From an uncultured Verrucomicrobiae bacterium (GTDB lineage: Bacteria > Verrucomicrobiota > Verrucomicrobiia > Limisphaerales > Palsa-1400), in assembly GCA_963764165.1 (NCBI GenBank), contig CAVXRD010000001.1, positions 1,248,001-1,312,000 on the forward strand: DNA of 64,000 nt. Direction: 5' to 3'. Shown piece by piece: positions 701 to 24,026 of this stretch. The position numbers and the translations under genes were made by a program. The notes below the pieces were generated by a model, which worked only from the letters and a program-made list of their open reading frames with translations, had not been told where the DNA came from and searched no databases. Position 1 is the stretch's first letter. Every line of letters begins with the position of its first letter.

Positions 701-755
701 GCATTTTTTCTCCAAAAATCGTGCCGAAAAACCTCTGGTAGGTTTTCTCTTTTCA
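701..755 (+). promoter_or_regulatory. Conserved ~50-bp element with palindromic core AAAACCT-N5-AGGTTTT (copy 1)
   Basis: Reverse complement matches 23979-24026 at 44 of 48 nt. Confidence 0.65.
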
Positions 756-8935: not shown

Positions 8936-8962
8936 CGCCTTATCTTACGAAGCGCAGCGGCA

Positions 8963-9165
8963 GCATCCCGGCAGGGATGCAAGATTGTAGCCGGTGGTTG
9001 AGCGAAGGGACACCACCGGAAAATGTCCCAAAAATCCTCCCGCATCCTGAAAGGATGCCAGCCGCAGCCCGCTGTCATCCCTGCCGGGATGAATCATTAT
9101 TATCGTTTTTTCCGGTGGTGTCGCTTCGCTCAACCACCGGCTACACTCTGTGACGCCTCCGGCAT
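8963..9165. repeat. Second REP/REPIN family (GTAG-started 38-bp inverted repeat plus catccc-gggatg hairpins)
   Basis: 8986-9023 and 9108-9145 are inverted with one mismatch; lies between convergent genes. Confidence 0.75.
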
Positions 9166-9310
9166 CGGCCGCGCAATCTGCTCCGACACCCCAGCAAGTT
9201 CATTGGCTCTTCTCACCAATTGTATTGGTCGGGGCCTCCTGCCGAGCCACGCCTACGCCGATGGCTCAGCAGCCTCGCCCTGCACGCAGTAACGCGCCAT
9301 CGCCGACTGT

Positions 9311-9628
9311 TCATGTCTTGATTCGATTCAATGCGCGACGCGCTCGATCGCACGGACTGCCTGGCTTCAGATCTGTCGTTCCATCGCCCTTCATGCACGG
9401 CCATCGAACAGTGCGGCCAATTGGACCAGCGATCTTGTGAACCAAATCTCCAAGCCCCTGCCCCATTGAAAACTCCCGCCGGATCGCCTCGTAATCGGAT
9501 TCGCTCAGTTGCAGGAATTGTTCGCCGTTGCGGTCAACGAGTTTTCCTCTTGACAGGCAGGCGTCGAGGTAGCCGGGCTTGCGGGCGGCGGCGGCCGACG
9601 GCGCGTGTTTCATGCTAAGATATTTCAT
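9311..9628 (-). CDS. Small phage-type hypothetical protein
   Basis: ATG 9628 overlaps the upstream TGA (ATGA); ends GLGDLVHKIA...C...C..RRALN. Confidence 0.7.
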   Translation of the reverse strand: MKYLSMKHAPSAAAARKPGYLDACLSRGKLVDRNGEQFLQLSESDYEAIRREFSMGQGLGDLVHKIAGPIGRTVRWPCMKGDGTTDLKPGSPCDRARRALNRIKT

Positions 9629-10371
9629 GGCCATTCCGCGGCGCCGGTAAATGGATCGTCGGGGGGCGCGTCGCAAGTCTGGCTCGGATTCCAGCTTGAG
9701 CCAAAGCCCGCGAAAACCCCGTTCGTCGGCGTAAGACTCGCCAGATCAGGCAAGATCGACATATTGCCGGATCCGAATATCCCGTAAGGCGGCAAACTCG
9801 CGCCGGGTTGAATAATTCCGAGCCAATACTGCTGCACCTGGATGGTGTCGTCCATCGTTGGATCAGGAATCGGCAGGTCCACGATCATAGGATATTGGTC
9901 ATCGGATTGCTGGGGGTAAATGCAGCCGCGCGCAAACCAGTTGACGCTTTGGCCGCAATTCGGCTCCGGCGAAATGTTAATGCTCGTGCCATACGCGATC
10001 ACGTAGTAAGCGGTCGGCAGCGGCAGGTAGAATTGCGATTTATAGACCGTCGGCACACTGCACGGCTGGCAGCAAACGCACGCGGTATAGTCCGGATTCC
10101 AGCCAACGCATTGGGTGAAATTTTCCGGATAGCCAATGCCCGAGGTGCAGCCATTGGTCGCCAGATTGTCCGGGGAAGTGTGGCCCGGATCGCTGAAATA
10201 GCCTGTCAAGCGATTACCCCAAGGCACCGTGGTGATGTCGTAGGCATTCGTCCAATTGATGATGTTCGTTGGATCGCCACCCGGGCCAAGTTCGGCCCCG
10301 ACGCAGCGCATCATGTAACCGCAATTGGCGCAGCCGCAGGCGGAAGAGGCCGCTATTGTCATGTCAATCAT
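9625..10371 (-). CDS. Cys/Pro/aromatic-rich hypothetical protein, possible tail-tip or receptor-binding protein
   Basis: 248 aa with CGCANC and CVCCQPC; last part of the tail module. Confidence 0.6.
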   Translation of the reverse strand: MIDMTIAASSACGCANCGYMMRCVGAELGPGGDPTNIINWTNAYDITTVPWGNRLTGYFSDPGHTSPDNLATNGCTSGIGYPENFTQCVGWNPDYTACVCCQPCSVPTVYKSQFYLPLPTAYYVIAYGTSINISPEPNCGQSVNWFARGCIYPQQSDDQYPMIVDLPIPDPTMDDTIQVQQYWLGIIQPGASLPPYGIFGSGNMSILPDLASLTPTNGVFAGFGSSWNPSQTCDAPPDDPFTGAAEWP

Positions 10372-10386
10372 AATACAAAAGCTTTC

Positions 10387-10493
10387 AAGGTAGGGACGCC
10401 TCGCCGAGGCGTCCGGGGTGAGGCATTATTCTTGCGCGGGTCGCGGAAATTATTCACGCGCAACCGGACGCCTCGGCGAGGCGTCCCTACCTT
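10387..10493. repeat. Intact GTAG-type REP doublet inside the phage-like operon
   Basis: aaggtagggacgcctcgccgaggcgtccgg ... ccggacgcctcggcgaggcgtccctacctt. Confidence 0.85.
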
Positions 10494-10501
10494 AAAATCC
10501 T

Positions 10502-12928
10502 CTAGGATGTCTCCGTTGGCGTCGTGCATAGAATATAAAAGCTGTAAGTCTTCATGGTGGGCGTTCCACTCACGTTGACGCATTGGCTGTAGCTGACCTG
10601 CTGAAAATAAGCCTGCGCGTTCGACGGCAAATCCGCCGGGCTGATGCGGACGCACCCGCCCGCTGTGCCGCCGCTTCCCAATTGCAGATGGAGAATCGGC
10701 GCATTGGGAGCGCCCAAACCCGAGATGTTCCCGTAGTTCGGCTGCCCGCTGCCGCGAACATCGACGGTAAGGCCGGGATTGCCATGAGCGTAGGAATTCG
10801 ACGCCAAATCCGAGAGGCTCGCGGGAAAAATCTGCAAATCCGGCGCGCGGGTGCCCGGACTCGGGCCGCGCTGGGCGACGCTGTTGCCAAGTTGCGCGCC
10901 TGCCTGCTGATTCGCGTCATTGGTGATGTTCGAGCCGATGAAATAAATTTGCCGCGGCCCGCGATTCGCGCGCAACCGCTCCACCATGTCCCGCGCGCCG
11001 AGATGGGCGGCCGGCCCGAATCGGAGTGTCGTGCGTCCATTGGTCAAGTCGTAGGAAATTTGCTGGACGCATGCGTTCATCGCCGCCCATTCACTGCGCC
11101 CGCCGGAGATGTTGAGGTTGTTTCCCATTGGGCAGACATCGCTCACCTCGATTTCTTGGACGCTGAACGAGCCTTCGAATTGTGGAATTTTGGCGATGTT
11201 GTAAATGAATCCAGCCAAACCGTAGGGAACCACTTCGCCCTGCACAAATCCCGCCTGATGCTGATAAACGCCGCCAGGAATGCTCACCAGCGTCACGCGC
11301 GCCGTCTTCTCGTGATACGGAACGTGCGCTGTTTGAATCGAGCTCGATCCAACTTTGCTAACCTCGCTAATCACCCACTTCGCGTTAATCACCGCTTGAA
11401 CAACCTGGGCCGCTGTTCCAGACGGCGCATTGCCCGCCAGCATCCAGGGCGCGATCTGCCCGTCTGTCAACAAATACTGAAACGTGGAAAGATCCACCGC
11501 GTTTCCGTCATCGGCCCCGCCGGGATCATCCGCCGTCACGGAAACAGACGAGCCGGAGAACAGCGATGGCGTCGCGGCCAGCGTCTTGAATTCAGGAAAA
11601 ATCTTTTGCCAGAACGGAATGGCTGACGAATTTGAACTGGGATCAGCCGTGTTCACCGCCATCGTTTTGATGCTGCATTGAATCAGATTGCTGCTGTTTC
11701 CCTCCATGTCGATCGTCGCGGTGACGCCCGCGAAATCGCGCCCCGCCGCCTCCAGCGCCTGCATGGTGGCGCTGTTGGCGCTGCCGCCGACAAATGCGGG
11801 CGAACCGCCGAACGCGCTGGCGGCGGTGTAAAGCGCGCCTGTCAATCCTATTCCCTCGTAAGCCGCGCCGCTGACGGTTCCCGCGACATCGTGAACCACC
11901 TCCGTGTAAAGGCTTCCCGAGTTTGATCCTGTGATGCGGAACTTGAGCGCCACCGCGGATGGCGTGAGGTCATCGCGTTTCTTGATTCGGAAATTCTCCG
12001 TTGTGCCGACGAACGGCAAACTCACAGCCGGCAATTGGTCGCGCGTCGCAACATGCAACGTAGGCGGCGTGGTGGAGTAATCGAACCACACCAGCCCGTC
12101 GCCCATTGGCCCAATCCATTTTAGTTGCCGCCGCAGCGCCTCCGCGCAGGTTATATCGTTGACAGCGTCGAGCGGCGCGCGCAGCACCGTCCGCATGTCC
12201 GCCGCCGTCGTCCCCGTTTGCGCGCTTGTCTTGCCGGTGGCGGCGTAGCCTGGAATGTAATCGGGAATGAGAAGATTCGTGCCCGGCGTCACGTATAAAT
12301 CCCAGTTCGTCCCATCAATCGCCGAGGTCAGCGCGTCGGATTGCAATTGCGGCGACCCGTAATCAATCGTCGTCTGCCCGGCAACGTAAGCGATGATTTC
12401 GGCGATTTGCTGCCGGATCGACATCAGGTTGGTCGCGTTGCTGCCGGGCACCGTATCGTTGGGGCCGACGAGCGCATTCACGCTTTGCCCAAGCACGATC
12501 TGGCTCCGCCAATCCGCCACGTTGGCTGTTCCATTCCAAGTGAACCAGAGTTTTTGGAACACCAGGCGCTCAAAGAAAAATTCCCATGGCCCGGCGAATT
12601 TCAAATCGAACTTCTCCAGCGCCGGACTTCCGCTGCGAAAGGTTTCGACGCGCCAGCCAATGAACCATTGCGTCCCGCCAGTCCACGAGGTGTTGCCGCT
12701 CAACGGCAGACCGGCGGCGTTGGTTCCAGCGCCAGAGGATGGCGCGCGCCCGATTCGCAGGATGATTTTTCCACCGTAGGGAATCGGATCATCCGCGTCG
12801 GCTGGGAGCAGCAGTTTGCAAGCGAGGTGGTCGTGGGCCTGATTGCCAATCTCGCGCTCGCACTGGCTGATGTTCCAATCCGCCAGCGATTTTTCGACGC
12901 CGTTATACGTAAGTGTGGTGAAGGTCAT
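10502..12928 (-). CDS. Large putative tail hub/baseplate (Tal-like) protein, 808 aa
   Basis: Start MTFTTLTYNG; late VQQISYDLTNGRTTLRFG beta motif typical of hub proteins; position in tail module. Confidence 0.6.
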   Translation of the reverse strand: MTFTTLTYNGVEKSLADWNISQCEREIGNQAHDHLACKLLLPADADDPIPYGGKIILRIGRAPSSGAGTNAAGLPLSGNTSWTGGTQWFIGWRVETFRSGSPALEKFDLKFAGPWEFFFERLVFQKLWFTWNGTANVADWRSQIVLGQSVNALVGPNDTVPGSNATNLMSIRQQIAEIIAYVAGQTTIDYGSPQLQSDALTSAIDGTNWDLYVTPGTNLLIPDYIPGYAATGKTSAQTGTTAADMRTVLRAPLDAVNDITCAEALRRQLKWIGPMGDGLVWFDYSTTPPTLHVATRDQLPAVSLPFVGTTENFRIKKRDDLTPSAVALKFRITGSNSGSLYTEVVHDVAGTVSGAAYEGIGLTGALYTAASAFGGSPAFVGGSANSATMQALEAAGRDFAGVTATIDMEGNSSNLIQCSIKTMAVNTADPSSNSSAIPFWQKIFPEFKTLAATPSLFSGSSVSVTADDPGGADDGNAVDLSTFQYLLTDGQIAPWMLAGNAPSGTAAQVVQAVINAKWVISEVSKVGSSSIQTAHVPYHEKTARVTLVSIPGGVYQHQAGFVQGEVVPYGLAGFIYNIAKIPQFEGSFSVQEIEVSDVCPMGNNLNISGGRSEWAAMNACVQQISYDLTNGRTTLRFGPAAHLGARDMVERLRANRGPRQIYFIGSNITNDANQQAGAQLGNSVAQRGPSPGTRAPDLQIFPASLSDLASNSYAHGNPGLTVDVRGSGQPNYGNISGLGAPNAPILHLQLGSGGTAGGCVRISPADLPSNAQAYFQQVSYSQCVNVSGTPTMKTYSFYILCTTPTETS

Positions 12929-12996
12929 GTCTGGAATTTTTAAATTTGGGCCTTCCGCCGTCGCTCCGCTATGGCGCGACAAGCAGGAACGGAGCC

Positions 12997-14463
12997 TCAG
13001 GGCGCGGAGATCAAATTTGTGTGAGAGCCCGTGATCCAATACAACGCGCATGCGCCCGCGCCATTATTGGAACTCCAGAAAATTCCAGAGCCGGAAATGG
13101 CTGCGGGCGGCGTGGTTCCATTGGCGGGCATTACGATGTTATTTGACACGCCCAAGGTCCCGCTAACCGTGAGGGTGAAAGCGGGAGAGGCCGTGTCAAT
13201 GCCGACGTGGCCACTGTTGGTGGCGTAGAGGACAGATCCGCCGAAACCGGCATACTTTGTCATGTTCAAAAAACCAACCTGAGCCGGACTAAACTGCACC
13301 GTGGTGTTCGTTTGCGACGACCACGGCAACGTCGTTCCGCCCGCATTCGAGGGATAAAACGACAATTGCCACGTCAGCGGCTCATTATTGTAATAGGCGT
13401 AAACGTCTTCGCTCAGGGCTGGGCCGCTCGTTACATAGTAAAGGCCGCTCTGGTTGTAGTAGCTGTTCAGGAACGAGGTAAAACTGGAATTCGTTTGCGA
13501 TTGCAGAAAATATCCGCCCTCGCGAATTTGCGGCATGCCAATGTCCGGGTCGTAAAACCCGGTGCCATCGGGCAGGACGCTGACGCCGACGGAACCGTTG
13601 TTCATGACCGCTCCCGCGATGGACGAGCCAGCCTCCACGTAACCGACCGCAACGCCCGTCATGTTCTCCAAATAGATCGGATACCCTCCAGTGGGCAATC
13701 CGCCCGAAACAATCGTCAGCCCGTCGATCAGCCCCGCATTGCCCACGCCGCCTGTCAAAGAAACAGGACTTCCGCGCCCCGCAACGTAGCTTTCGGCCTG
13801 CACCGCGGTCATTCGCACATTGTTGAACGTGCCTGTTCCGGTGTGGGTGTAGACGGCGTTTTGCGCCCAATTGTCAATTATGCAGTTATTGAAGAACAGC
13901 CCGCTGGTGGTGCTGCCGGCGCCGCTTTGAAACTCAGGCTGCACGTCAACGGCATTCGTATAGCCGCCCGTGTCACCGTAACTGCCCCAGTCAAACGCGC
14001 CCCCGCCCGAGTTCAGAATTTGCCCGCCACCGGAGCCTTCCCAGCGAATCGCGCAGCGCGACTTATGAATGCCGCCGACGCCGCCGAGCGCCTCCCAGCC
14101 CGAATTCAGAATCGTCCAGCCACCCACGTCCACGTTGGCGAAGTTGTTGATGCGAATGCCGTCGCAATACCAGCGAATCCAGCTCAAGTTATATGCCTGC
14201 CAGCCCTGGCCCGCCTGGTAATCCACGCAGCGGTAGCCGCCGTCGAGAAGCACGTTGTTCCAATTGCAGCTCACCGCGCCGTTGATGCCATCGGCGTTCG
14301 TTGTCAAACAAACGAATGCGCCGGCGCTGGGCGGAGTGGCGTTCGTCCAGAATCCGGCGATGTTCTGAAACGTCAGGTAACTCCCCCTCGCCACAAAGCA
14401 ATTGAGGTGAGGTTTGTCCAAACGATGGCGGAAACCAATGTGTCCGGCTGGCCCAACGCCCAA
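12997..14463 (-). CDS. C-terminal part of a beta-helix tailspike-like protein (frameshifted from the upstream ORF)
   Basis: N/G/T-rich beta-helix-like sequence; C-terminal GHVGIDTASPAFTLTVSG fibre-like motif; no convincing start of its own. Confidence 0.65.
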   Translation of the reverse strand: MGVGPAGHIGFRHRLDKPHLNCFVARGSYLTFQNIAGFWTNATPPSAGAFVCLTTNADGINGAVSCNWNNVLLDGGYRCVDYQAGQGWQAYNLSWIRWYCDGIRINNFANVDVGGWTILNSGWEALGGVGGIHKSRCAIRWEGSGGGQILNSGGGAFDWGSYGDTGGYTNAVDVQPEFQSGAGSTTSGLFFNNCIIDNWAQNAVYTHTGTGTFNNVRMTAVQAESYVAGRGSPVSLTGGVGNAGLIDGLTIVSGGLPTGGYPIYLENMTGVAVGYVEAGSSIAGAVMNNGSVGVSVLPDGTGFYDPDIGMPQIREGGYFLQSQTNSSFTSFLNSYYNQSGLYYVTSGPALSEDVYAYYNNEPLTWQLSFYPSNAGGTTLPWSSQTNTTVQFSPAQVGFLNMTKYAGFGGSVLYATNSGHVGIDTASPAFTLTVSGTLGVSNNIVMPANGTTPPAAISGSGIFWSSNNGAGACALYWITGSHTNLISAP

Positions 14464-15104
14464 GACCCGGCGCCATCACCGAGGATGGTCAGGTTCGCGT
14501 TCGTGATAATAATATTTCCGCTGACTTTGTATTTTCCGCGCGGGAAATAAATGGCGCCACCGTTTCCCGCCGCCGCCATCGCGTTGGAAATGGCGGCGTT
14601 GTTATCGGTGACCCCGTCCCCGACGCCGCCTGTGGAAGTGATGTTCACATAGCTGGCAATCGATACAGGAACCCACGCGGCGCCATTCCATTCCAGCACC
14701 TGGCCCGCGGCCGCGCCTGATTGCGTCAACGCCGAGGTCGGAAGATTGGTCGCGCCAGAAATATTGCCGCTGACGATCGCAAGGTTTGTCGCGATTTGTC
14801 CGCTGGTGGTGGCATTGGTCAAGTAAGTATTCGTGCCAAAACCACCGAAGGGCGCAATTCCCGAACCGCCACCCCCACCCCCTCCGCTGAATCCAGCCCG
14901 GGTCAGCGCGTTGGTCAGCGGCGTGATATTCGTGTCAAAGAAATTGGTTTCGTTGGGCGGAATGGCGTTATTCGTATTGACGACGAATACTTTGTTGGTG
15001 GAAATCTGCGCCGAAGCGGGATAATCCATGGCGGCGAATAATAAAATCGCGAATAGAATGCGGAATGCGGTTTTCATTTTGGTCGGAAGTTTGAGCGGGT
15101 TCAT
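14373..15104 (-). CDS. N-terminal part of a tailspike-like protein with signal peptide and pectate-lyase-3-like motif
   Basis: MKTAFRILFAILLFAAMDYPASAQ; GQVLEWNGAAWVP; GGVGDGVTDNNAAI...IYFPRGKY. Confidence 0.7.
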   Translation of the reverse strand: MNPLKLPTKMKTAFRILFAILLFAAMDYPASAQISTNKVFVVNTNNAIPPNETNFFDTNITPLTNALTRAGFSGGGGGGGSGIAPFGGFGTNTYLTNATTSGQIATNLAIVSGNISGATNLPTSALTQSGAAAGQVLEWNGAAWVPVSIASYVNITSTGGVGDGVTDNNAAISNAMAAAGNGGAIYFPRGKYKVSGNIIITNANLTILGDGAGSWALGQPDTLVSAIVWTNLTSIALWRGGVT

Positions 15105-15108
15105 TTTC

Positions 15109-15735
15109 TTAGTATCCTTGGTCTGAGAGTTGGAGGGTCAGGACGCCGCCGTCGTTTAGAATCGACAGCGTATGATAAAGTCCAGTGGTGGCATCGAGCA
15201 GTTGCGGGACAATCCGCCCCGAAACAGTCGTGTAACGCAATCCGGCCAGGGGCGGAGCGCTGGCGCTGGTGGCGGGGCCGTCCTTCACCGTAAGCGGGCC
15301 ATTCAAAATGGTGATGTTCTTGGCCGGAGAATCAGTCGTCTGGGCCGTGATGCGCAGCCAATAGTTGACGCTGGCCAGCCCGCCGAGGCTAATGGCCGTC
15401 TGGCTATTCGGGAACAAGAATGCAGCGTGATAAAACGGCGTGGTATTGCCGTTCCACTCACTTTGCGTCAGCGACAAATTCATGCTCGCGGCCGCGACAA
15501 AGCAACTCAGCATCGGCGGGTTGGAATCGTTTTCCGCCGCAAAAATTTGCGCGGTCACGGAGGCGACATTCGACAGCGAGGTGAGCAGGGCGCCGTTTTG
15601 GCCCAGGCCGATGTCAATTTCGATGTCGTCGCCGCGATAAAACGAGGGCGGCTGATTGCCGCGATTGAGATCAATAAGATTGCCCGGCGCGGCGACGTCG
15701 CACAGCAGCCGGATGGGAAGAGGTGTCAATGCCAT
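15109..15735 (-). CDS. Putative baseplate upper protein (BppU-N-like)
   Basis: FYRGDDIEIDIGLGQNG...LSNVASVTAQI and ILNGPLTV pattern; position before the spike gene. Confidence 0.5.
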   Translation of the reverse strand: MALTPLPIRLLCDVAAPGNLIDLNRGNQPPSFYRGDDIEIDIGLGQNGALLTSLSNVASVTAQIFAAENDSNPPMLSCFVAAASMNLSLTQSEWNGNTTPFYHAAFLFPNSQTAISLGGLASVNYWLRITAQTTDSPAKNITILNGPLTVKDGPATSASAPPLAGLRYTTVSGRIVPQLLDATTGLYHTLSILNDGGVLTLQLSDQGY

Positions 15736-15769
15736 ATGTCAATAATAGGAATTTTTGGGGTGATGGAAA

Positions 15770-16240
15770 TTACGGGCTGGTCTGCCACGCGCCGTTGCCG
15801 CAGATCGAATAGGTGATGTTGCAGGCAACTTCCTGGTGCGCCACACACGCCACCGATTCCACAACGGCATTCGGCAAATAGCGCGTGATCAATCCAGTGC
15901 CGGATTGGTTGTAAATCGTGATTTCGCCCTGCACCGGAACGCTGTCTGGATGAAACAGAATGAAGGCCAGGCAGGCCTCCGCCGTTTGAAACGACCGCTG
16001 CGCCGTAAAGGCAAAGCGGTTTTCAAGGTTGTAGCGGGGAATGTTCGAGAGATAGGCCGCCCGGAACAGCGGTGCTTTCTGGATGATCCGCTTTTGCTGG
16101 TTGAGGCAGCCTTCCTTGACCTGCCCTCCAGCGCCGCTGGAGAAATTCGTCGAGGGCGCCGAACCGCTAATAAGGCGGATGCTGTCATCGGCCAGGACAA
16201 ACGGCACGGAACCGCCAGAGGGGGTGATGGTGATTTTCAT
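15770..16240 (-). CDS. Hypothetical tail protein (distal-tail position)
   Basis: 156-aa beta-rich ORF coupled to the upstream gene; assignment by position only. Confidence 0.5.
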   Translation of the reverse strand: MKITITPSGGSVPFVLADDSIRLISGSAPSTNFSSGAGGQVKEGCLNQQKRIIQKAPLFRAAYLSNIPRYNLENRFAFTAQRSFQTAEACLAFILFHPDSVPVQGEITIYNQSGTGLITRYLPNAVVESVACVAHQEVACNITYSICGNGAWQTSP

Positions 16241-16521
16241 GTTTGGCTGAAGTCCGCAAAGAATTGCACGGCGTCGCGCATTTCCAATTGGGAGACGTTT
16301 GGATCCGAGTTGAGCCGGAGACGGAGACGGCGCAACGCCTGCGCCTCAATCGCCCGAATCATCGCCGGCGTGCAATCGCACCAGGCGGCAATTTCACCCG
16401 CGCTGTGAGTCGCGCGAGGTTTGGCTGCGGCGGACAAAATCGCCAGGCCCAGGTCGATGCGCCTGCCTTTCCGTCCGTTGCGAATCGGCGGCGAATCCAC
16501 GTTTTTGTGATCGTGCGTCAT
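16237..16521 (-). CDS. Small sigma70 region 4-like helix-turn-helix protein
   Basis: HSAGEIAAWCDCTPAMIRAIEAQALRRLR resembles the TLEEIG...RVRQIEAKALRKLR pattern. Confidence 0.7.
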   Translation of the reverse strand: MTHDHKNVDSPPIRNGRKGRRIDLGLAILSAAAKPRATHSAGEIAAWCDCTPAMIRAIEAQALRRLRLRLNSDPNVSQLEMRDAVQFFADFSQT

Positions 16522-16524
16522 GGT

Positions 16525-17460
16525 TTATGCGAGGGTTAAGGCCGCCCGGGATGGAACGCCGCCGCTGGCGATGTTAAGCGTGCTGACCCACCCCAATTCG
16601 CCCACGCGCAACGGGCGCCCGCCAAAGACGTATCCCGCCGATTTCAACGCCGCGTTGCCAAGGGTAATGGTGATGCTGCTGCTGCCCGAAATCACGAGAT
16701 TGGCTGAATTCGTTGACAGCCGGTAACCGCCCGCGGCTCCCGTTCCCTGCGCATACAGCGCCGCGTCAATTTGCGCCGCCGTCGGCCCGAGCGGTTTGCA
16801 TTTGGCCATCACGCGGCAGCTCGCCAGCTTGAACGCGCGCGTCCGGCCTTGAATGGTCACCGGCTCCAATTTCAGTTCGTGGCTGATCGTCCATTTATCC
16901 TGCGCTTGAAAGCTCGTGAATCCCGCGATGCTTCCCCACGCCGCCGTGAATTCCTGCCGCCCGAGGACAGCCGTGCCGGGAACGGCGGGATTGCTGAACG
17001 ACTGGCCTGTTTGCAGCGTGTAATAGCTATTGGCGGAACTCGCGTTCTGGCCGTTCGCAATGACGCCCCAAATTTCCATGCGGCCCAGCACCGGCCCTTC
17101 GACGCCGAGTTCCAGGTCCGGCATTTTGCCGACCAGCGCGCTCGTCAGCGCGACGACATCGCCGTTGTTGCTGTTCCACGCGCAAGCCACGTCGGAACTG
17201 CCGGGAAAGGACGTGCCGACCGTGGCGGAGACATACGGGAACATGGTCGCCAGCGCAGCCGTATCGTAGAAGAGCGGGCGGCCTTGGGCTTTGACGACCA
17301 TGTCCCGATAAATTTCGTCCACGTCGCCGTAAAGCGAAGTGGCAACAACGTCGGTGACGAGCGCTGTTTCGACGGTGGAATCCTCGGCAAATTGAATATT
17401 CTGGCCATTAAAGGCCGCGTAAGCCGGACCGCCGGCAAGTTGGGATCGGGTGACACTCAT
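16525..17460 (-). CDS. Putative major tail tube protein
   Basis: 311 aa, A/G/S/T-rich, N-terminal LAGGPAYAAFNG; follows the neck genes. Confidence 0.6.
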   Translation of the reverse strand: MSVTRSQLAGGPAYAAFNGQNIQFAEDSTVETALVTDVVATSLYGDVDEIYRDMVVKAQGRPLFYDTAALATMFPYVSATVGTSFPGSSDVACAWNSNNGDVVALTSALVGKMPDLELGVEGPVLGRMEIWGVIANGQNASSANSYYTLQTGQSFSNPAVPGTAVLGRQEFTAAWGSIAGFTSFQAQDKWTISHELKLEPVTIQGRTRAFKLASCRVMAKCKPLGPTAAQIDAALYAQGTGAAGGYRLSTNSANLVISGSSSITITLGNAALKSAGYVFGGRPLRVGELGWVSTLNIASGGVPSRAALTLA

Positions 17461-17493
17461 AAATTGTGTATAGTTGACATGTGTTGGATGGGT

Positions 17494-18213
17494 TTAATTG
17501 ACGACGAACGTATCGATCATGCTTCCCTGCAAAGCGCCGTTGTAAGCCGCCGTGCGGACAGTCGTGCCGCCTGCGACGCTGAACGGCGTCGTGTACAAAG
17601 TCGCATTAGGATTTCCCGCCCCGGGGAAACTCGCGTCCGTGGTGTAAAAAATGGCGGAGCCGCCGCCCGGCTGCTGGTCCGAAAGCGTGACCGTGCCCGC
17701 ATTGGCGCTGGCGCCCGGAATGATCGTCCGCGTGAGCGCGGTTAACGCAAACGTCGCGCGCAGCGTCACTGCCAGGGCAATGAAGGGCGAATCTGCGGGA
17801 GTCGAAACGTATTCATAAAACGTGGGCGCGGCGTAAAATCCTTGCAGCGCCCCGCCGAGGAAAAACAACTGAAACGTCTGGGCCAAATTCACCGCAATTT
17901 GTTCGGCGCTAAGCCCGGTGCCATTTGCGCCCTGGTTCACAGTTGGCTGCTCCTTCACGAGAAATTTCTGCTCCAGCGTGCAAACCGGCCCCGCTGTATC
18001 CGGCAAAGCGGATTTCAACGCGGGCATCAGAACTTCGATCGACGCCCCGCCCTTTCCGTTGCGTCCCGAAAATCCCGACAAGGCGCGGCTGACTTCGGTG
18101 TCCATTCGTTTCTCGCGCACTTTGAAAATGGCGATGCTTTGGAACCATGGCTCGGAGAGCAGCTTGTAATAGACGTCCGGCTGGACGGATTCGATTTGGG
18201 CGGCAAGGCTCAT
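17494..18213 (-). CDS. Putative tail terminator/neck protein with a C-terminal FN3-associated (CHB_HEX_C-like) domain
   Basis: C-terminus VTLSD...IFYTTDASFP...LYTTPFSV...VRTAAY. Confidence 0.6.
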   Translation of the reverse strand: MSLAAQIESVQPDVYYKLLSEPWFQSIAIFKVREKRMDTEVSRALSGFSGRNGKGGASIEVLMPALKSALPDTAGPVCTLEQKFLVKEQPTVNQGANGTGLSAEQIAVNLAQTFQLFFLGGALQGFYAAPTFYEYVSTPADSPFIALAVTLRATFALTALTRTIIPGASANAGTVTLSDQQPGGGSAIFYTTDASFPGAGNPNATLYTTPFSVAGGTTVRTAAYNGALQGSMIDTFVVN

Positions 18214-18237
18214 ATTGAAAATGGGAAAATGGGTCGA

Positions 18238-18684
18238 TTAGGTTTCGCCGAGCTTGTCAAATGAATGCGTTGAAACGCGATGGCCCCGGCGAATGGCCTC
18301 CACCCGGAAACTAGGGCCGGTCACGTTCTGCGGATTGGCGGGAATCTCCACCTTCTCGCGCCCTTCGCGAATTTTCTCCATGCGCTTGACAGATTCGTCG
18401 TATTGGGCGCGCCGGAAATCGCTCTGCAAATCCGTCTTGGGCAGGCTGCAAAACCACTTCCAGCGAACCATTGCAATGGCGTCGGAGCGAATCTGGTCAG
18501 GCACGGTTCCGACTGGCCCAATCTGGTTTCCGCCGACCAGGATGCCCGCCTGAATTTCAGCGGTGATGGTCGCGAGGATGGTCGAAAGGATCGACGAGCT
18601 TCCCTGAATCGTGTTCAGCATCGTGACTTCGTCCGGGAGGATTTCCGCCGTGACGTCAGCGGCGGCAAGTGTGTTCCAAGGCAT
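18238..18684 (-). CDS. Mu gp36-like (DUF1320) head-tail connector
   Basis: Helical 148 aa with VPDQIRSDAIAMVRW and AQYDESVKRMEKIREG; follows the capsid genes. Confidence 0.7.
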   Translation of the reverse strand: MPWNTLAAADVTAEILPDEVTMLNTIQGSSSILSTILATITAEIQAGILVGGNQIGPVGTVPDQIRSDAIAMVRWKWFCSLPKTDLQSDFRRAQYDESVKRMEKIREGREKVEIPANPQNVTGPSFRVEAIRRGHRVSTHSFDKLGET

Positions 18685-18706
18685 AAGCAATTTTGTTGAG
18701 GTAAGG

Positions 18707-18748
18707 AGCGCCGGCGCGGAAGGATGGGATGGTTGCCGCGCCGGCGCT
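18707..18748 (-). terminator. 13-bp GC-rich hairpin after the head genes (partial terminator or mRNA stabiliser)
   Basis: agcgccggcgcgg (18707-18719) and ccgcgccggcgct (18736-18748); weak U tract. Confidence 0.5.
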
Positions 18749-18757
18749 GTTGGTTGG

Positions 18758-19273
18758 CTAAGGCGTGATGCTGGCTTGCAGCGTGAGGTTAATGTTGCTG
18801 ATCGCGCCGTTGGAAACGGACGTGATGCGGAAAGCCGTGGCCGGCTCCCACAGGCTCGTCGCGATGTTCGTCGCGGCGGTGACCTGGTTCGTGCCGTTCA
18901 ACGGGAACGTCCAGATAAACGGCGTAGTGGTGGTGAAGTTTGTGCCGTAACGGCCGTTGATCGCGGCCGGATTTCCGCCCGCGCTGTCGTAGGCGAAATC
19001 CACCTTCACGGTGACGTTGCTCAAGGCAACGTTGTTCGTTGTCGTCACGGTGGCCCACAATCCGATCGGATGCGAACCGCTGTAAGCGAGGAACGTGTTG
19101 GTAGAAGCGGCAGCCTGGAACAACTGGTTGCTGGTGAGCGTCTGGCTGGACACCAGCGTGTAAATGCGCGGCGTCACCTGGGTGGTGACCTGCGCAGCCG
19201 CGCGGCGCATTCCGGCGGCCAGCATGGCGGACGTGGCGAGAAGGACCAAGCCCTTCTGAATGAATCTTTTCAT
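18758..19273 (-). CDS. Signal-peptide-bearing beta-rich protein directly after the major capsid gene
   Basis: MKRFIQKGLVLLATSAMLAAGMRRAAA-Q; Thr/Asn-rich mature part. Confidence 0.75.
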   Translation of the reverse strand: MKRFIQKGLVLLATSAMLAAGMRRAAAQVTTQVTPRIYTLVSSQTLTSNQLFQAAASTNTFLAYSGSHPIGLWATVTTTNNVALSNVTVKVDFAYDSAGGNPAAINGRYGTNFTTTTPFIWTFPLNGTNQVTAATNIATSLWEPATAFRITSVSNGAISNINLTLQASITP

Positions 19274-19296
19274 ATTCGTGTTTCGATTTAAGAGTT

Positions 19297-20364
19297 TTAG
19301 TTGACTGTGATTTGCTGAATTCCAGTGGTGTGCTGCACGTGCAGGAACTCGTAGTTTTCGACCGTGAGGGCGATGAGCTTGACGCCGACATCGGTGACAT
19401 AGACGGCGTAATCGCCCCCGCCGTAAGCGGAGTTGGCGACGTGCCGCACGAGGTTGCTCGAGTCCATCGGGCCGTCGGCTTCGATGCTGGTGAACAGCAT
19501 GACGTTGCTGCCGATGATTTCCTGCTTGGCCGTGCCGGTGGATTGCTGGTAGCGCTCGGCGTTGATGATGCAGCGATCCACACCGATGGCAGTGGCCACC
19601 TGCTCTTCCGTGAATTGCCCCGCTCGCGCCAGCGCGCCGGCGGTGAGCTGTGTCTCGTAGGCGTTCTGGCGCTTGAGCGCGGCCTGATCACCGTAAACGG
19701 CGACCAGCGGATAGAAGCCGGTGGTGTTGGCCAGGTTGATGATGTCCTGCTTCAATTCCAAATCAGGATTGCTGCCTGTATCCCAAATGGTGGAGGAAGT
19801 GATGGCTGCGGCTTGCAGAAGCGAAACCGCTTCCAGCACAGTGGCGCGCATCATCAAGTCCAGCAGCCACTTGGTGTGGACCTGCTGCCATTCCGGCTTA
19901 TCCTTGAGCTGGTCGCGGTCCAGCAGCACGGTCAAACCGCGATTGGGCACCTGCAAATCCACCTTCGTGGCGACGCGCTGGCGCACGCGCATGAAGTCGG
20001 ACAGGATGCTGCGTTTGACACGCGTGTAATCCACGGTCTGCCACGGCTCGTTTTCGTCGTAAACTGTCAAGCGCACGATGCGGCTGTTGCTGGGGCGCGG
20101 CGGGGCCAGCGTGTCGCGCAATTGGCGGAGGCGGTTGCCGACCATGCCGTCGTAGCTGATGGCAAAGGCGGTCAATTCCTCGATGTATTCGGACTGCCGG
20201 AGCAGCGAATCGTTGGCCAGGCAAACCTGCCCGTGATGCGCGCCGACGTTGTTGGAGGAAATCGCGTTGGGGGCAAAATCGTTGCCCAGCGCGACTCCGA
20301 GGGATTCCAACGCCGCCACGCGGGCGGAATTGGAGAGGACGATGGGGTCTTTCATAGTTGTCAT
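19297..20364 (-). CDS. Putative major capsid protein
   Basis: About 355 aa; canonical position after protease and decoration genes; ends GIQQITVN; NRGLTVLLDRD. Confidence 0.7.
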   Translation of the reverse strand: MTTMKDPIVLSNSARVAALESLGVALGNDFAPNAISSNNVGAHHGQVCLANDSLLRQSEYIEELTAFAISYDGMVGNRLRQLRDTLAPPRPSNSRIVRLTVYDENEPWQTVDYTRVKRSILSDFMRVRQRVATKVDLQVPNRGLTVLLDRDQLKDKPEWQQVHTKWLLDLMMRATVLEAVSLLQAAAITSSTIWDTGSNPDLELKQDIINLANTTGFYPLVAVYGDQAALKRQNAYETQLTAGALARAGQFTEEQVATAIGVDRCIINAERYQQSTGTAKQEIIGSNVMLFTSIEADGPMDSSNLVRHVANSAYGGGDYAVYVTDVGVKLIALTVENYEFLHVQHTTGIQQITVN

Positions 20365-20375
20365 GGAGTGATGTG

Positions 20376-20864
20376 TTATTGGGTGATCGAGTAGGGGAAG
20401 CACGGGATGAACGGGATGTCCAATCCGCCAGCCCCAACAGTCTTGGTGGCGCGGCCGATGACCCAGAATGTGCCGTGCCCGGCAGTTGTGAGGTCGCCGA
20501 CGTAACCGTTGGGGGCCGAGTAGACGAGATTGTCAATCGTGACCGATCCCACCGAAACGCCGAGCTGCATGCCGACGGTGGCGCCAAAACGCTCGATGTC
20601 GAAGAAGTCGCCCAATTGGTAAGGGGCGTCCGGCGACACGCCAAGCGGCATGCTGGTCCCGTCCGCGACCGCGGCGTAATATTGGCCGGAACCGCGCTTG
20701 TAAACCAAATACTTGCTCGTGACGGGCAGCGAACTGCCCGGATCGATCTGGAGCGATTCGCGCCCGTGTTCGAACACGCCGCCCAATTCGTTGGCCAGGG
20801 CAACAGGCTCCGGCCCGGCGAAAAATGCGGCGGGGTTCAGGATGAATTTCAGGAATTTTCTCAT
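20376..20864 (-). CDS. Putative head decoration/capsid cement protein (DUF2190-like)
   Basis: PLGVSPD, DNLVYSAPNGYV, WVIGRATK pattern; precedes the capsid gene. Confidence 0.65.
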   Translation of the reverse strand: MRKFLKFILNPAAFFAGPEPVALANELGGVFEHGRESLQIDPGSSLPVTSKYLVYKRGSGQYYAAVADGTSMPLGVSPDAPYQLGDFFDIERFGATVGMQLGVSVGSVTIDNLVYSAPNGYVGDLTTAGHGTFWVIGRATKTVGAGGLDIPFIPCFPYSITQ

Positions 20865-20907
20865 AGGTAACTTTTTTCTGTGGATATTTTTGGTGTTCGT
20901 TTCTGGG

Positions 20908-21165
20908 TTATTTCTTTGCCGCCTGGTTTCGGGCAGCTTCGAATTCACGCTGCCGCTTTATGACGGCGATGGCCTGCTCGCGGCGCAAACCGCGCGCCAT
21001 TTTTTCGCCGATGATGACCTCGTCGGCCTCGGCTTGTTTCTTGACAGCCTCAAACTGCGCGATGCGGGCTTTGAGGATGGCGTTCTCGGCCGCCAGATCG
21101 CCGGCGGCGGGCGGCGGCGTGGCTGCCGCGGTGGATGGTGCTGATGATGGAGTTTCTTTTGGCAT
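20908..21165 (-). CDS. Small coiled-coil hypothetical protein (scaffold-like)
   Basis: 85 aa: LAAENAILKARIAQFE, GLRREQAIAVIKRQ. Confidence 0.6.
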   Translation of the reverse strand: MPKETPSSAPSTAAATPPPAAGDLAAENAILKARIAQFEAVKKQAEADEVIIGEKMARGLRREQAIAVIKRQREFEAARNQAAKK

Positions 21166-21181
21166 AGGTGGATCGGTTGAA

Positions 21182-22381
21182 TTAACGGGCCCGCAATTTT
21201 TCGGCGAGGCCGGGGTTGCTGCTCATTACGGCGTGGTGCGCCTTGACGGGATCGGTCTCGCCGCTTTCCTTCATGTGGCGCTCGACGGAGGCGCAATACT
21301 CTTCGCGCACGTCGCCGCTGGCGCGGTGGTTGGAGAGAATTTTTCCACTTTCGGCGCACGCCGTCGTTTTGAAGCGGGCGGGAGCGTCCAGCAAGCTGGC
21401 TGATTCGCGCTCGAAATCGGCTGCGTTTTCCAGCGCCTGAAGACGTGTGGAGCGTTCGGACACGGCCACTTTGCCGCGAGCAATCGCCAAGTCGACGACT
21501 CCGGCGGCACGCTGCGATTTCACCTGCGCGATTTGCGTTTTCAAGCCGTTCGCCTCGTTTTCAAGCGCGGCGGCAGCGGACTTCAAATTCGCGACTTGCG
21601 ATTTGAGATCCTCGTTTTCGCCGGACAGGGTTGCATTCTCGTTGCCCAGCGCCGCGGCCTCGCCGGCGGCGGAGGCGTGGAGCTTTTGCAGGGCTGCGAG
21701 AACCTCGGGTTCGGCCGGGCTGTCGGGATGGGCGAGAGTCGCGCCATTGGCCAGCAGCCAGCCTGCGATGAGTTTCATTTCGGGTTCTTTTGTTGGGATG
21801 TTTTCTTCGGTTGCACCGGCGGGTCTGGCGTTGGCCAGCGATTCCACGCCGGAAATGTTGGGATGGGCCGTCAGGCCCGCGGACAAAAGCTTGAAGGGCC
21901 GGGCCAGAATGGCGTTGCCGCGCCGCCCCATCGGCTGGACATACCAAAGCGCGCTGGGATATTTGCATCCGTCGCGCTCAACGGCTTCGGCGCCGGCAGG
22001 CGTCAAGACGAAATGCGCCTCCAGCCCGCGCTCGGATTTGCGCACCTTGTCGATGGCGCCGATGATTTCCTTCTTCCCTGCGCGCTCCGTCGAATTGGGC
22101 GAGAAGTCCGCCAGATCAGGATGGCCTTTGTAGACCGGAATGCCGATCACGGCGCGGCGAATGCGGCGGAAGAGAGAATTCTCGCGGGAAAGAAGCTGGT
22201 CGGCCGATTCGTGGTCGAGAACCTGGATGAAGTGCTCGCGCTCGATTCGCCCATCTTTTCGGACGAGGCGCGACTTGGGATGCTCGCCAAAGGGCGCAAT
22301 CAGCGCCCAGCCTTCGTCGTCAAGTGAGTATTCATTTGACAGAATGGTCATGTGTTGGGTCATGGGTAAATTCGGGTTCAT
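21182..22381 (-). CDS. Mu-like prophage I protein (prohead protease plus scaffold)
   Basis: WALIAPFGEHP, PVYKGHPD, KYPSALW, LLSAGLTAHPNI, followed by a coiled-coil scaffold. Confidence 0.85.
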   Translation of the reverse strand: MNPNLPMTQHMTILSNEYSLDDEGWALIAPFGEHPKSRLVRKDGRIEREHFIQVLDHESADQLLSRENSLFRRIRRAVIGIPVYKGHPDLADFSPNSTERAGKKEIIGAIDKVRKSERGLEAHFVLTPAGAEAVERDGCKYPSALWYVQPMGRRGNAILARPFKLLSAGLTAHPNISGVESLANARPAGATEENIPTKEPEMKLIAGWLLANGATLAHPDSPAEPEVLAALQKLHASAAGEAAALGNENATLSGENEDLKSQVANLKSAAAALENEANGLKTQIAQVKSQRAAGVVDLAIARGKVAVSERSTRLQALENAADFERESASLLDAPARFKTTACAESGKILSNHRASGDVREEYCASVERHMKESGETDPVKAHHAVMSSNPGLAEKLRAR

Positions 22382-22389
22382 TGCTTTGG

Positions 22390-23835
22390 TTAGGCGGCTT
22401 GGTTTGGAATCGAGTAACCGAGCGCCGGCTCAGTCGCATGCGAACTGTAGAAGCCCGCTTCGTCCACCTGCGGATCCGGCATGTCCGGATTGGCGGTCTG
22501 CGGCTCGCGCCGGGCGTCTGCGCCGGGCGCGATAGGCGTCGCGCTGGAAGAAGCGGCCGGGAGCGAGTGCGTTTCGCGGGGATGGCCGGTTGTATCGCCC
22601 TCCTCCCGGCCGTGGGGTCGGGGGTTGCGGGGAAATTCGAGGCACGGCTCGCCGGGCGCTGGCGGCGTCCAGCGGAAGCGCTTGTAAGCTTCCTTCAAGC
22701 TGATGCGAAGGCCCATCGGCACCAGCGCCTGGGCGCACTGCAAATCCATCGCCGCCGAATCGTCCTGCGGCGCGACCACCGCCATCCAGGCCCGCGGCTC
22801 TCTGTCAAATAGGTAACGGATTACGGGACGGTCAACGCGGTCGTTCAAAATTTCTGAGGCCCAGGCGGCGTCGCGGGCGAGGAAAATTCCGGATTCCTCT
22901 TTTTGCACGCTCGCGCCAACGACGTTTCGCCCGGATTCGCGGCTGCCAGTGGCAAGATCGACGCCGCGATAACATTTGGCGTAAAGGCGATTGACCAGTT
23001 CCACCAGAGGCGCGAACGGGAGGGTGGCGGCGGCGGGAATGCTCGAAAATTTAATGTTTAGGTCAGGGTTGTGAATGACTTGTCCATCGTTGGCCAATTC
23101 ATTCAACACCTGGCGGGCTTCCTCCCACGCAGGATCGCCCTTTTGCGCGCTCGTGACGGCCTCGACAAAACCAGAGCCGTAGCGGGCGTTGAACAACAGC
23201 CAGTCGCGCAGGGAAAGCGACTTCAAGACAAACGCCATGCTGAGCGAGCGCATCAGCCCCTGCCCGACCGCCGTCAGCCATTCCCCTTGCAGGCAAGGCT
23301 CGCCGTAGACGTCAAATATATGTTTGAGATAGCCAAGATAGCCGCGGCGGCTCTCGAAGAACCAAATGGGCGTGTGGCGGAATTCGGCGGTCACCTCGCG
23401 CGCGGCGGGATTATCCACCCGCAGCAGCATTTCGTGGACGCTATAATAATGCGAGTGCGCGGTGGCGAGCTGGTAGAGCAGTTCGCTCACGCCGCCCGAG
23501 GAATCCTGGTCCAGCGCCCGGGTGGTGCGCAGATGGCGGTAGAAATACTCGAGGGCCTGGGCGTGGCGGTCCCCTTCCGGGCTGCCGTCGGAAACGATCT
23601 GCCAATCAAGCCCGGCGAGGTCGGAGGCGCGCTTGTCGGCATTGGCCGAAAGCTCGCCGTCCCGTTCAATCATGGTTTCCCATATTTTGCCGACAACGCG
23701 CAATTCGCCGATGCGGAAGGCGTTGAGGTTGGAGGAAATCCAGTCCATCGAAATGTTCGGCATCGGCGAGTAGCGGAGCCGGATGGCCCATTCGATGCGG
23801 GCCTGGTCAAATTGAGATGCGCCACTGAGGTTCAT
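22390..23835 (-). CDS. Mu gp29-like (DUF935) portal protein
   Basis: WETMIERDGELS, LAGLDWQI, GQGLMRSL, RDWLLFNARYG. Confidence 0.85.
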   Translation of the reverse strand: MNLSGASQFDQARIEWAIRLRYSPMPNISMDWISSNLNAFRIGELRVVGKIWETMIERDGELSANADKRASDLAGLDWQIVSDGSPEGDRHAQALEYFYRHLRTTRALDQDSSGGVSELLYQLATAHSHYYSVHEMLLRVDNPAAREVTAEFRHTPIWFFESRRGYLGYLKHIFDVYGEPCLQGEWLTAVGQGLMRSLSMAFVLKSLSLRDWLLFNARYGSGFVEAVTSAQKGDPAWEEARQVLNELANDGQVIHNPDLNIKFSSIPAAATLPFAPLVELVNRLYAKCYRGVDLATGSRESGRNVVGASVQKEESGIFLARDAAWASEILNDRVDRPVIRYLFDREPRAWMAVVAPQDDSAAMDLQCAQALVPMGLRISLKEAYKRFRWTPPAPGEPCLEFPRNPRPHGREEGDTTGHPRETHSLPAASSSATPIAPGADARREPQTANPDMPDPQVDEAGFYSSHATEPALGYSIPNQAA

Positions 23836-23945
23836 AGTGTGTTCGGGTAGCGGTTGGATGAGCCCAGCGCGGGGATTCGGGCCGCCTGCAGTTCGTTCTG
23901 CCGGCCGCGCGTTTCGCGTTGAGCTTTATGTTTCATGCTCGTCAT
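23832..23945 (-). CDS. Short 34-37 aa ORF translationally coupled to the portal gene
   Basis: MTSMKHKAQRETRGRQNELQAARIPALGSSNRYPNTL; its TGA overlaps the portal ATG. Confidence 0.4.
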   Translation of the reverse strand: MTSMKHKAQRETRGRQNELQAARIPALGSSNRYPNTL

Positions 23946-23972: not shown

Positions 23973-24026
23973 TGAAACAGAAAACCTACCAGAGGTTTTT
24001 TAGCACGATTTTTGCAAAAAAAATGC
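23973..24026 (-). promoter_or_regulatory. Conserved ~50-bp element with AAAACCT-N5-AGGTTTT core (copy 2), upstream of the phage-like operon
   Basis: Palindrome at 23981-23999; inverted near-copy of 701-755. Confidence 0.65.

Follow-up and report, generated by a model that had tools for sequence, protein, structure and literature searches.

Few lineages of gene transfer agents (GTAs) are known, most of them from Alphaproteobacteria, and it is difficult to distinguish a GTA from the remnant of a prophage, as 10.1101/2024.11.15.623857 states. The genes of the Rhodobacter capsulatus agent RcGTA, at least 24 in number, are spread over five loci, with 17 in a head-tail cluster; the agent is inherited mostly vertically and uses a common promoter (PMC10883770). 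The Faecalibacterium GTA is laid out in operons I and II, the first holding TerS, TerL, portal and capsid genes, and its particles, which have been shown, have a short tail or none (10.1101/2024.11.15.623857). Border-undelimited, or domesticated, proviruses have lost their integration genes and att signatures (PMC13626063), and for the most part they lose viral core genes as well. Here we analyze a Mu-like head operon and its companion loci in an uncultured Verrucomicrobiae bacterium (assembly GCA_963764165.1). The window is the 64,000-nucleotide stretch of contig CAVXRD010000001.1 from 1,248,001 to 1,312,000 on the forward strand, and coordinates refer to it unless they carry a contig prefix (such as C2: or C4:). 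The source genome, G000, spans 7.0 Mb in 5 contigs and is 97% complete.

The operon belongs to an immobile, inherited, selected and split Mu-derived system of virion and packaging genes with a shared promoter. We regard it as very probable that this is a domesticated, co-regulated particle system; that it packages and transfers host DNA, and so works like a GTA, is a reading towards which we lean with considerably more reserve.

Like RcGTA and other alphaproteobacterial GTAs, the system combines a structural cluster with further loci, descends mostly vertically, has a common promoter and does not replicate itself; unlike RcGTA, it has a Mu-type portal, protease, gp36 and terminase, keeps the terminase outside the head operon, has a T5-like tube and resides in another phylum. 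In RcGTA, TerL is part of the head-tail cluster, as is a short tape measure. Here the portal, protease and adaptor match Mu families and TerL is unlinked, so that, judged on these matches rather than on direct alignment to RcGTA proteins, homology and gene order are not those of RcGTA, and the system is GTA-like by anatomy yet not an RcGTA-family member. With the Faecalibacterium GTA it shares a multi-operon layout outside the Alphaproteobacteria, but here it is TerL that is parted from the portal, and the ancestor was Mu-like. It resembles border-undelimited proviruses in the loss of integration genes and att signatures, but core virion and packaging genes have been kept under selection. Tailocins and contractile injection systems are a poor match: capsid, portal and terminase are present, the tube is non-contractile and there is no sheath gene.

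With Mu and Mu-like phages the system shares Gam, a repressor and the late promoter layout described in PMC2582627. It differs from Mu in having no MuA, only a fragment of MuB, no gpF, gpG or sheath and no Mor/C activator that we could find, and in being split, single-copy and vertically inherited; the set expected of an intact Mu-like prophage (MuA, MuB and a terminase next to portal and gpF) is thus not present.

The head operon

Seventeen co-oriented minus-strand open reading frames (ORFs) at 9311-23835 (about 14.5 kb) count as 16 genes, because the spike is split into two ORFs. The names of the decoration, neck, o156, o208, o248 and o121 genes come from position or weak matches only.

22390..23835, minus: portal of Mu gp29 type, 481 aa (PF06074, Portal_Mu, E 3e-37; 65-76% orthologues in 10/40 relatives)
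21182..22381, minus: Mu gpI-like protease with C-terminal coiled-coil scaffold (PF10123, Mu-like_Pro, E 1e-12)
20908..21165, minus: small coiled-coil protein, probably scaffold-like, kept in carriers and phages
20376..20864, minus: putative head decoration protein (position, conservation; hydrophobic N-terminus, ALAN motif, no family match)
19297..20355, minus: major capsid protein, HK97 fold, 352 aa (predicted structure)
18758..19273, minus: protein whose N-terminus resembles a signal peptide; related phages have homologues in this position
18238..18690, minus: Mu gp36-like head-tail adaptor (PF07030, Phage_Mu_Gp36, E 1e-5)
17494..18213, minus: putative neck/terminator protein with C-terminal Fn3-associated domain (position or weak matches)
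16525..17460, minus: non-contractile tail tube protein, T5-like two-domain fold (structure model)
16237..16521, minus: small sigma-region-4-like helix-turn-helix (HTH) protein, an activator candidate (PF04545 below cut-off)
15770..16240, minus: conserved tail-region protein o156 (position, conservation)
15109..15735, minus: o208, a conserved N-terminal tail-tip/fibre protein that the C4 prophage carries as a fusion with its spike
12997..15104, minus: beta-helical tail spike, ORFs 14373-15104 and 12997-14463 (pectate-lyase-like start, PHROG tail-spike matches)
10502..12928, minus: putative baseplate hub/central tip protein, 808 aa (ESM look-alikes, viral hypotheticals and Sipho_Gp37 only)
10385..10495, no strand: pair of REP-like palindromes inserted between the hub and o248 genes, of which the genome has about 380 copies
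9625..10371, minus: Cys-rich tip protein o248
9311..9634, minus: last gene, o121 (position or weak matches)

This layout bears out the earlier note, which had described about 16 co-oriented structural ORFs, all but one of them intact: only the spike gene is broken, by a 1-bp deletion near 14409 relative to the C4-prophage paralogue, and this deletion may be either genuine or an artefact of assembly. The absence of terminase, gpF, tape measure, transposase, repressor and lysis genes from the cluster likewise stands, in that none of the 17 ORFs matched one above curated cut-offs, and neither gpG nor a sheath or toxin gene was seen within the operon. The description of its surroundings holds for G000 alone: a GH76 gene and a CopA-type P-ATPase gene do flank the operon and dnaA lies 5.8 kb away, but neither the flanking context nor the near-dnaA site is conserved among relatives, where neighboring host genes are shared within clades (three genomes of genus g1; G008/G017/G022; G006/G019). 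The comparison of base composition with the host, which the note had proposed, was uninformative, GC content at third codon positions failing to separate cluster, host and prophage.

The capsid has no Pfam match, and its AlphaFold model (117-sequence alignment, pLDDT 88) finds 3bjq as best match (E 6.5e-14, TM 0.59); the tube protein, modelled at pLDDT 76, finds its counterparts among two-domain tube proteins of T5 type (7qg9_G, E 8.5e-10). Both protease and capsid show an excess of conserved L-x-N motifs, putative sites of maturation cleavage; the protease carries seven L[ASGE]N motifs against 0.45 expected. Related phages carry gpF and gpG just upstream of the neck/terminator gene, where the window operon has neither; a tape-measure-like gene follows o121 in the C4 prophage, G006 and G014, and none follows it in the window. 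The spike varies between carriers, and the HTH gene is present only in genus g1. Signal-peptide-like N-termini, unusual for tailed phages, occur in the virion-region proteins at 18758-19273 and 14373-15104 and also in related phages (L017, L020-L022). An NCBIfam search named no cluster gene, a PDB sequence search with tube, hub and neck profiles returned nothing useful, and an Rfam search of window positions 1-30000 gave no match. In one soil DNA run a relative appears at about 90% identity across 26/30 bins, with 12619-14686 uncovered; no RNA run was listed as containing the sequence.

Terminase, lysis and repressor modules

Terminase, lysis-type and repressor genes do exist in G000, outside the head operon (module A). 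A Terminase_6N search of the genome gave two matches, one in the C4 prophage and the other in an orphan module on C2 (module B), which realizes the earlier prediction of orphan terminase and lysis genes elsewhere in the genome; a third module (C) lies on the same contig.

C2:560197-564279: module B, two lipoproteins, class-3 lipase, holin-like, gp26-like and TerS-like proteins and TerL, with host genes on both sides ("holin-like" and "TerS-like" by position)
C2:2144482-2146142: module C, repressor-like HTH protein, conserved 78-aa protein, MuB-like fragment without Walker A, and Mu Gam

In G014 the TerL module sits 2.3 kb upstream of the orthologous portal, and module B is therefore the cognate terminase of the window operon. 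The combined order, gp25-like, gp26-like, gp27-like and TerL, then portal, protease, capsid and gp36, is that of Mu. The nuclease acids of TerL are conserved. Its Walker motifs read GKD and LLTE, instead of GKS and LLDE, in 11/11 lineage copies (L025:9769-11280), a reciprocal change that possibly swaps Mg ligands; as a mark of domestication the swap was rejected, since the phage-like locus L382, which has gpF, shares it. In the regions inspected around modules A-C no transposase was called; the phrog_310 search is of only moderate sensitivity. Directly after TerL lies a pair, presumably a ParDE-like toxin-antitoxin system (C2:564285-564892), not seen at that place in relatives.

The prophage at C4:316000-352000 (L024, L189, L247) is a complete-looking Mu-like element with its own transposase and terminase and a different, HK97-type head; it has a lipase instead of an endolysin and places last a tape-measure-like gene, the only such homologue found in G000.

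Distribution, descent and selection

The family sample comprises 27 genomes at least 80% complete, a carrier being a genome with the capsid gene. This gene is present in 12/27 genomes, at one locus each, and its distribution follows genus: 4/5 in g1, 3/3 in g3, 1/1 in g5 and 4/4 in g8 (12/13 in these four), against 0/14 in six other genera; G002 lacks the operon. Capsid identity among the other carriers is 83-92% in 10/11 and 68% in G014. TerL orthologues, 64-77% identical, were found in 11/12 carriers, the copy of G017 being a contig-end fragment. TerL lies at a separate locus from the portal in 10 carriers and is contiguous with it in G014; host genes precede the portal in 11/12 carriers and follow TerL in 8 genomes, with a contig edge in two others. 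The repressor has a strong match in 11/12 carriers, and 25/27 family genomes match it, including genera without the type-1 head. Outside the family, tube homologues occur in 10/289 genomes of the order, at only 29-45% identity.

Metagenomic loci, of which the 33/61 longer than 5 kb were analyzed and some represent the same genotype, fall on either side of the split. Where the capsid is at least 80% identical, TerL stands upstream of the portal in 0/14, the promoter is present in 14/14 and gpF in 0/14; at 59-69%, TerL is upstream in 7/10, the promoter motif is present in 0/10 and gpF in 12/14. Among IMG/VR records, the closest relatives found have capsids of only 59-64% and a TerL of 33% identity, and 3/5 related records carry a Mu-type transposase.

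NG86 estimates of omega (dN/dS) over 14 genome pairs are mostly 0.04-0.3: capsid 0.04-0.09 (0.25 with G014), portal 0.12-0.20, TerL 0.08-0.29 and hub mostly 0.16-0.3 (up to 0.48). Higher values, up to 0.77, belong to the lipase, the gp26-like protein and some distal tail genes. Synonymous divergence (dS) is mostly 0.8-2, of the same order as for rpoB (0.6-1.3). Head and rpoB trees of 10 genomes, with G003 left out for lack of rpoB and G014 for its long branch, have 6/7 splits in common, and the rpoB data do not reject the head tree (approximately unbiased, AU, test p 0.11). The TerS-like protein evolves fast, at 12-30% identity to G000 versus 64-77% for TerL.

The marks of an ordinary prophage that the earlier note had named did not appear. 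Rather than patchy, the operon is single-copy in 12/13 genomes of four genera; instead of matches to complete prophages there are only the distant IMG/VR capsids; and in place of relaxed selection we find low omega, dS near that of rpoB and a head tree that tracks the host tree. The locus itself, near dnaA, is not conserved, and neighbors are shared within clades. The note's central claim, a host-maintained Mu-derived particle, gains support from single copy, low omega, near-vertical descent and the orphan terminase and lysis module.

A shared late-type promoter and its dispersed copies

23975..24001, minus: late-type promoter core of the head operon; same core before the terminase module (C2:560073)
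726..752, plus: second copy in the window, one of the genome's 64, roughly 500 bp ahead of glnB

The promoter consists of an A/T tract, an 11-bp dyad centered at about -42 and an extended -10 box (TG-n-(-10)). Mu late promoters have a -10 box and no -35, and C binds a dyad at -43.5 (PMC2582627); as sequence, the layout found here matches theirs. By eye, related prophages have one similar arrangement, ahead of their lysis genes. The sequences that precede portal and terminase module are nearly identical within each genome and differ between genomes: within one genome the two regions match at 25-30 of 30 nt in 7/9 genomes, at 22 in G004 and at 17 in contiguous G014, against at most 22/30 among 600 random upstream regions. 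The portal of G014 is not preceded by the promoter, which is what a duplication at the split would predict.

The 64 copies in G000 are set apart by a clean score gap, no copy was flagged inside a called gene, and 63/64 face a co-oriented gene, against 60% by chance; they show no leading-strand bias (32/64). Searched with their own variants, G008 has 81 copies, G003 45, G001 about 27, G006 18, G017 16 and G044 only 3, counts that exclude G004, G011, G019 and G022, where the patterns missed known sites; five non-carriers gave background only, with a loose pattern. The sites are non-orthologous between genomes, and their orientation is mixed in G006 and G008. In G006, 12/13 copies head a repeat of about 500 bp, for which neither target-site duplication nor sharp ends are evident by eye. 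Solo TerL or gp27-like genes stand downstream of some copies. The idea that the dispersed promoter serves a conserved host regulon was rejected: from 40 sites in relatives (20/~27 in G001, 13/18 in G006, 7/81 in G008), two flanking genes matched the 126 genes flanking copies in G000, about the chance number. ATG-started ORFs after the promoter were likewise discarded as genes because they are not conserved; the ATG likely marks +1 instead.

The copies could have spread, most plainly, by capture in REP-type repeats, which are abundant in G000, or, more boldly, by packaging-site drive. REP-like repeat families are abundant, as at window 10385-10495 and 8930-9310.

What the system may do

We posit that the common ancestor of four Verrucomicrobiota genera acquired a Mu-like siphophage, whose transposase was lost while the host retained the remainder as a system of its own, now in up to three pieces (A, B and C). 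An activator would bind the dyad at about -42 and turn on A and B together; the protease would mature HK97 proheads at L-x-N sites; and TerS/TerL, with neither a phage genome nor Mu ends to package, would load host DNA into the heads. These would be joined to short non-contractile tails bearing a variable spike, the cell would lyse through module B, and the particle could then act as a GTA. Three features of GTAs are found: phage-derived head, portal and terminase genes are intact; no autonomous replication or integration genes are linked, there being no transposase near A-C and only a MuB remnant without Walker A; and inheritance is vertical under purifying selection, with deviations in G014 and in the placement of G008. 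Genes at three loci and a shared promoter sequence may point to a scattered, co-regulated system, but the promoter has 62 further copies. The capsid-tail structure without DNA that the earlier note had also allowed is weakened, because the terminase is intact, selected and under the same promoter.

Several observations weigh against a domesticated, co-regulated system or against its acting as a GTA. Particles, packaged DNA and expression are unseen. Neither a Mor nor a C activator was found, and since the promoter also stands at sites other than A and B, it is weaker proof of their specific co-regulation. Gene content is uneven: gpF and gpG are in no carrier operon; a tape-measure-like gene is present in cis in only two carriers, G006 and G014, which makes DNA delivery doubtful; TerL was not found in G011, TerS is missing from the G019 module and Gam occurs in only 5/12 carriers; module B has no endolysin, and in G001 it lacks even the lipase; and the spike is frameshifted in the G000 window. 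The omega values are rough because dS is near saturation, several values being saturated. Tested on the head data, the rpoB topology fails (AU p 0.0004), the conflict lying in the placement of G008, and G014, excluded from that test, is a long-branch outlier. Distal tail genes have been exchanged with prophages, o248 being 82% and the hub 67% identical to the C4 prophage.

Among the alternatives, a domesticated particle with another job survives best, although we consider it rather unlikely. It could be a DNA-filled, non-transducing killer or decoy of the PBSX kind, or an anti-phage system that interferes with or titrates related Mu-like phages through its proteins and many promoter copies. 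With gpF, gpG and usually the tape-measure-like gene gone, components probably needed for delivering DNA are absent, the spike is often swapped, the repressor is the most widely kept piece of all, and a phage activator could be sequestered by dozens of activator-type sites. Terminase, portal and maturation motifs, however, are all under selection, which a particle serving only immunity or as a decoy would not require, and neither sheath nor toxin gene was seen in the operon.

A more specific form of the GTA reading, which we put forward tentatively and with slightly less confidence still, is that of an agent of independent origin from a Mu-like phage, in which the late promoter, doubling as terminase-recognition site, would have been amplified 15-80x per chromosome into scattered start points for packaging, each spreading because it favors its own transfer, as has been proposed for DNA-uptake sequences. 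Each lineage's promoter variant would then match its fast-evolving TerS-like protein, and domestication could have been staged, from contiguous (G014, and a second capsid type in G018/G042) through half split (G044) to fully split (G000 and others). If the ends of particle DNA or induced transcripts start at the 64 sites, this would show a phage motor retargeted to the host chromosome.

Less probable is a grounded helper, whose modules would supply virions to transposable cassettes or resident Mu-like prophages that in turn supply the missing parts. Cassettes of a transposase, an AAA ATPase and a tape-measure-like gene occur in 11/27 family genomes, 7 of them carriers; they begin with a phrog_310 transposase and hold the tape-measure-like gene that the operon lacks, and G000 itself contains a full prophage of Mu-like type whose tail genes are related. 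But the cassette was not found in G000, G006, G014, G019 or G044, is also present in non-carriers, and is multi-copy and only 28-71% identical between genomes, and selection on satellites alone would not keep an immobile chromosomal helper intact. As a fixed fourth module the cassette was rejected. At loci L234 (G008:C100), L235, L236 (G001:C79), L237, L238 and L240, where the ATPase is of AAA/TniB type, it looks like a transposable phage satellite; the G001 copy also carries a protease-capsid fusion.

That the operon is simply a prophage in decay, or that a phage in circulation inserted independently several times, is very improbable and largely refuted, for despite the frameshifted spike of G000, apparent frameshifts in genes of G004, G006, G011, G019 and G044, variable host flanks and the lack of the operon in G002, the system is single-copy, clade-wide and recurrently split at the same breakpoints, with low omega indicating selection, host-like dS, congruent trees and a promoter duplicated at the break.

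We found no description of this system in the literature searched, where supplementary tables of predicted GTAs or proviruses could still list these loci; Verrucomicrobia go unmentioned in the accessible portions of PMC13626063 and 10.1101/2024.11.15.623857. The domesticated system is a well-supported GTA candidate from an abundant soil and peat phylum, with a Mu-like ancestor, all main loci located and intermediate stages in relatives.

Related elements

Genus g10 carries a second element, contiguous and without transposase (G018:C1:1964000-1985400, L082, L083; G042:C20:28000-52600, L177, L178), with a different Mu portal and capsid and the same tail, hub and TerL family. It occupies the same host site in both genomes, with a 92% identical capsid and 8-10 promoter copies, and likely represents a parallel domestication. 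Four genomes of family f63, genus g72 (L320, L323, L324, L325), have tube homologues of about 35% identity, possibly another conserved element. G000 holds at least seven solo Mu gp27-like (small-terminase-like) genes (C1:1236191, C2:1191869, C2:1834166, C2:2572939, C4:77602, C5:50381 and C3:755782), several about 95% identical and two behind a late promoter, and G006 has three extra solo TerL copies. A third phage region in G000 (C4:463000-485500, L188) has its own tail module and TGCCGTAAnT boxes, and its fibre shares the spike domain.

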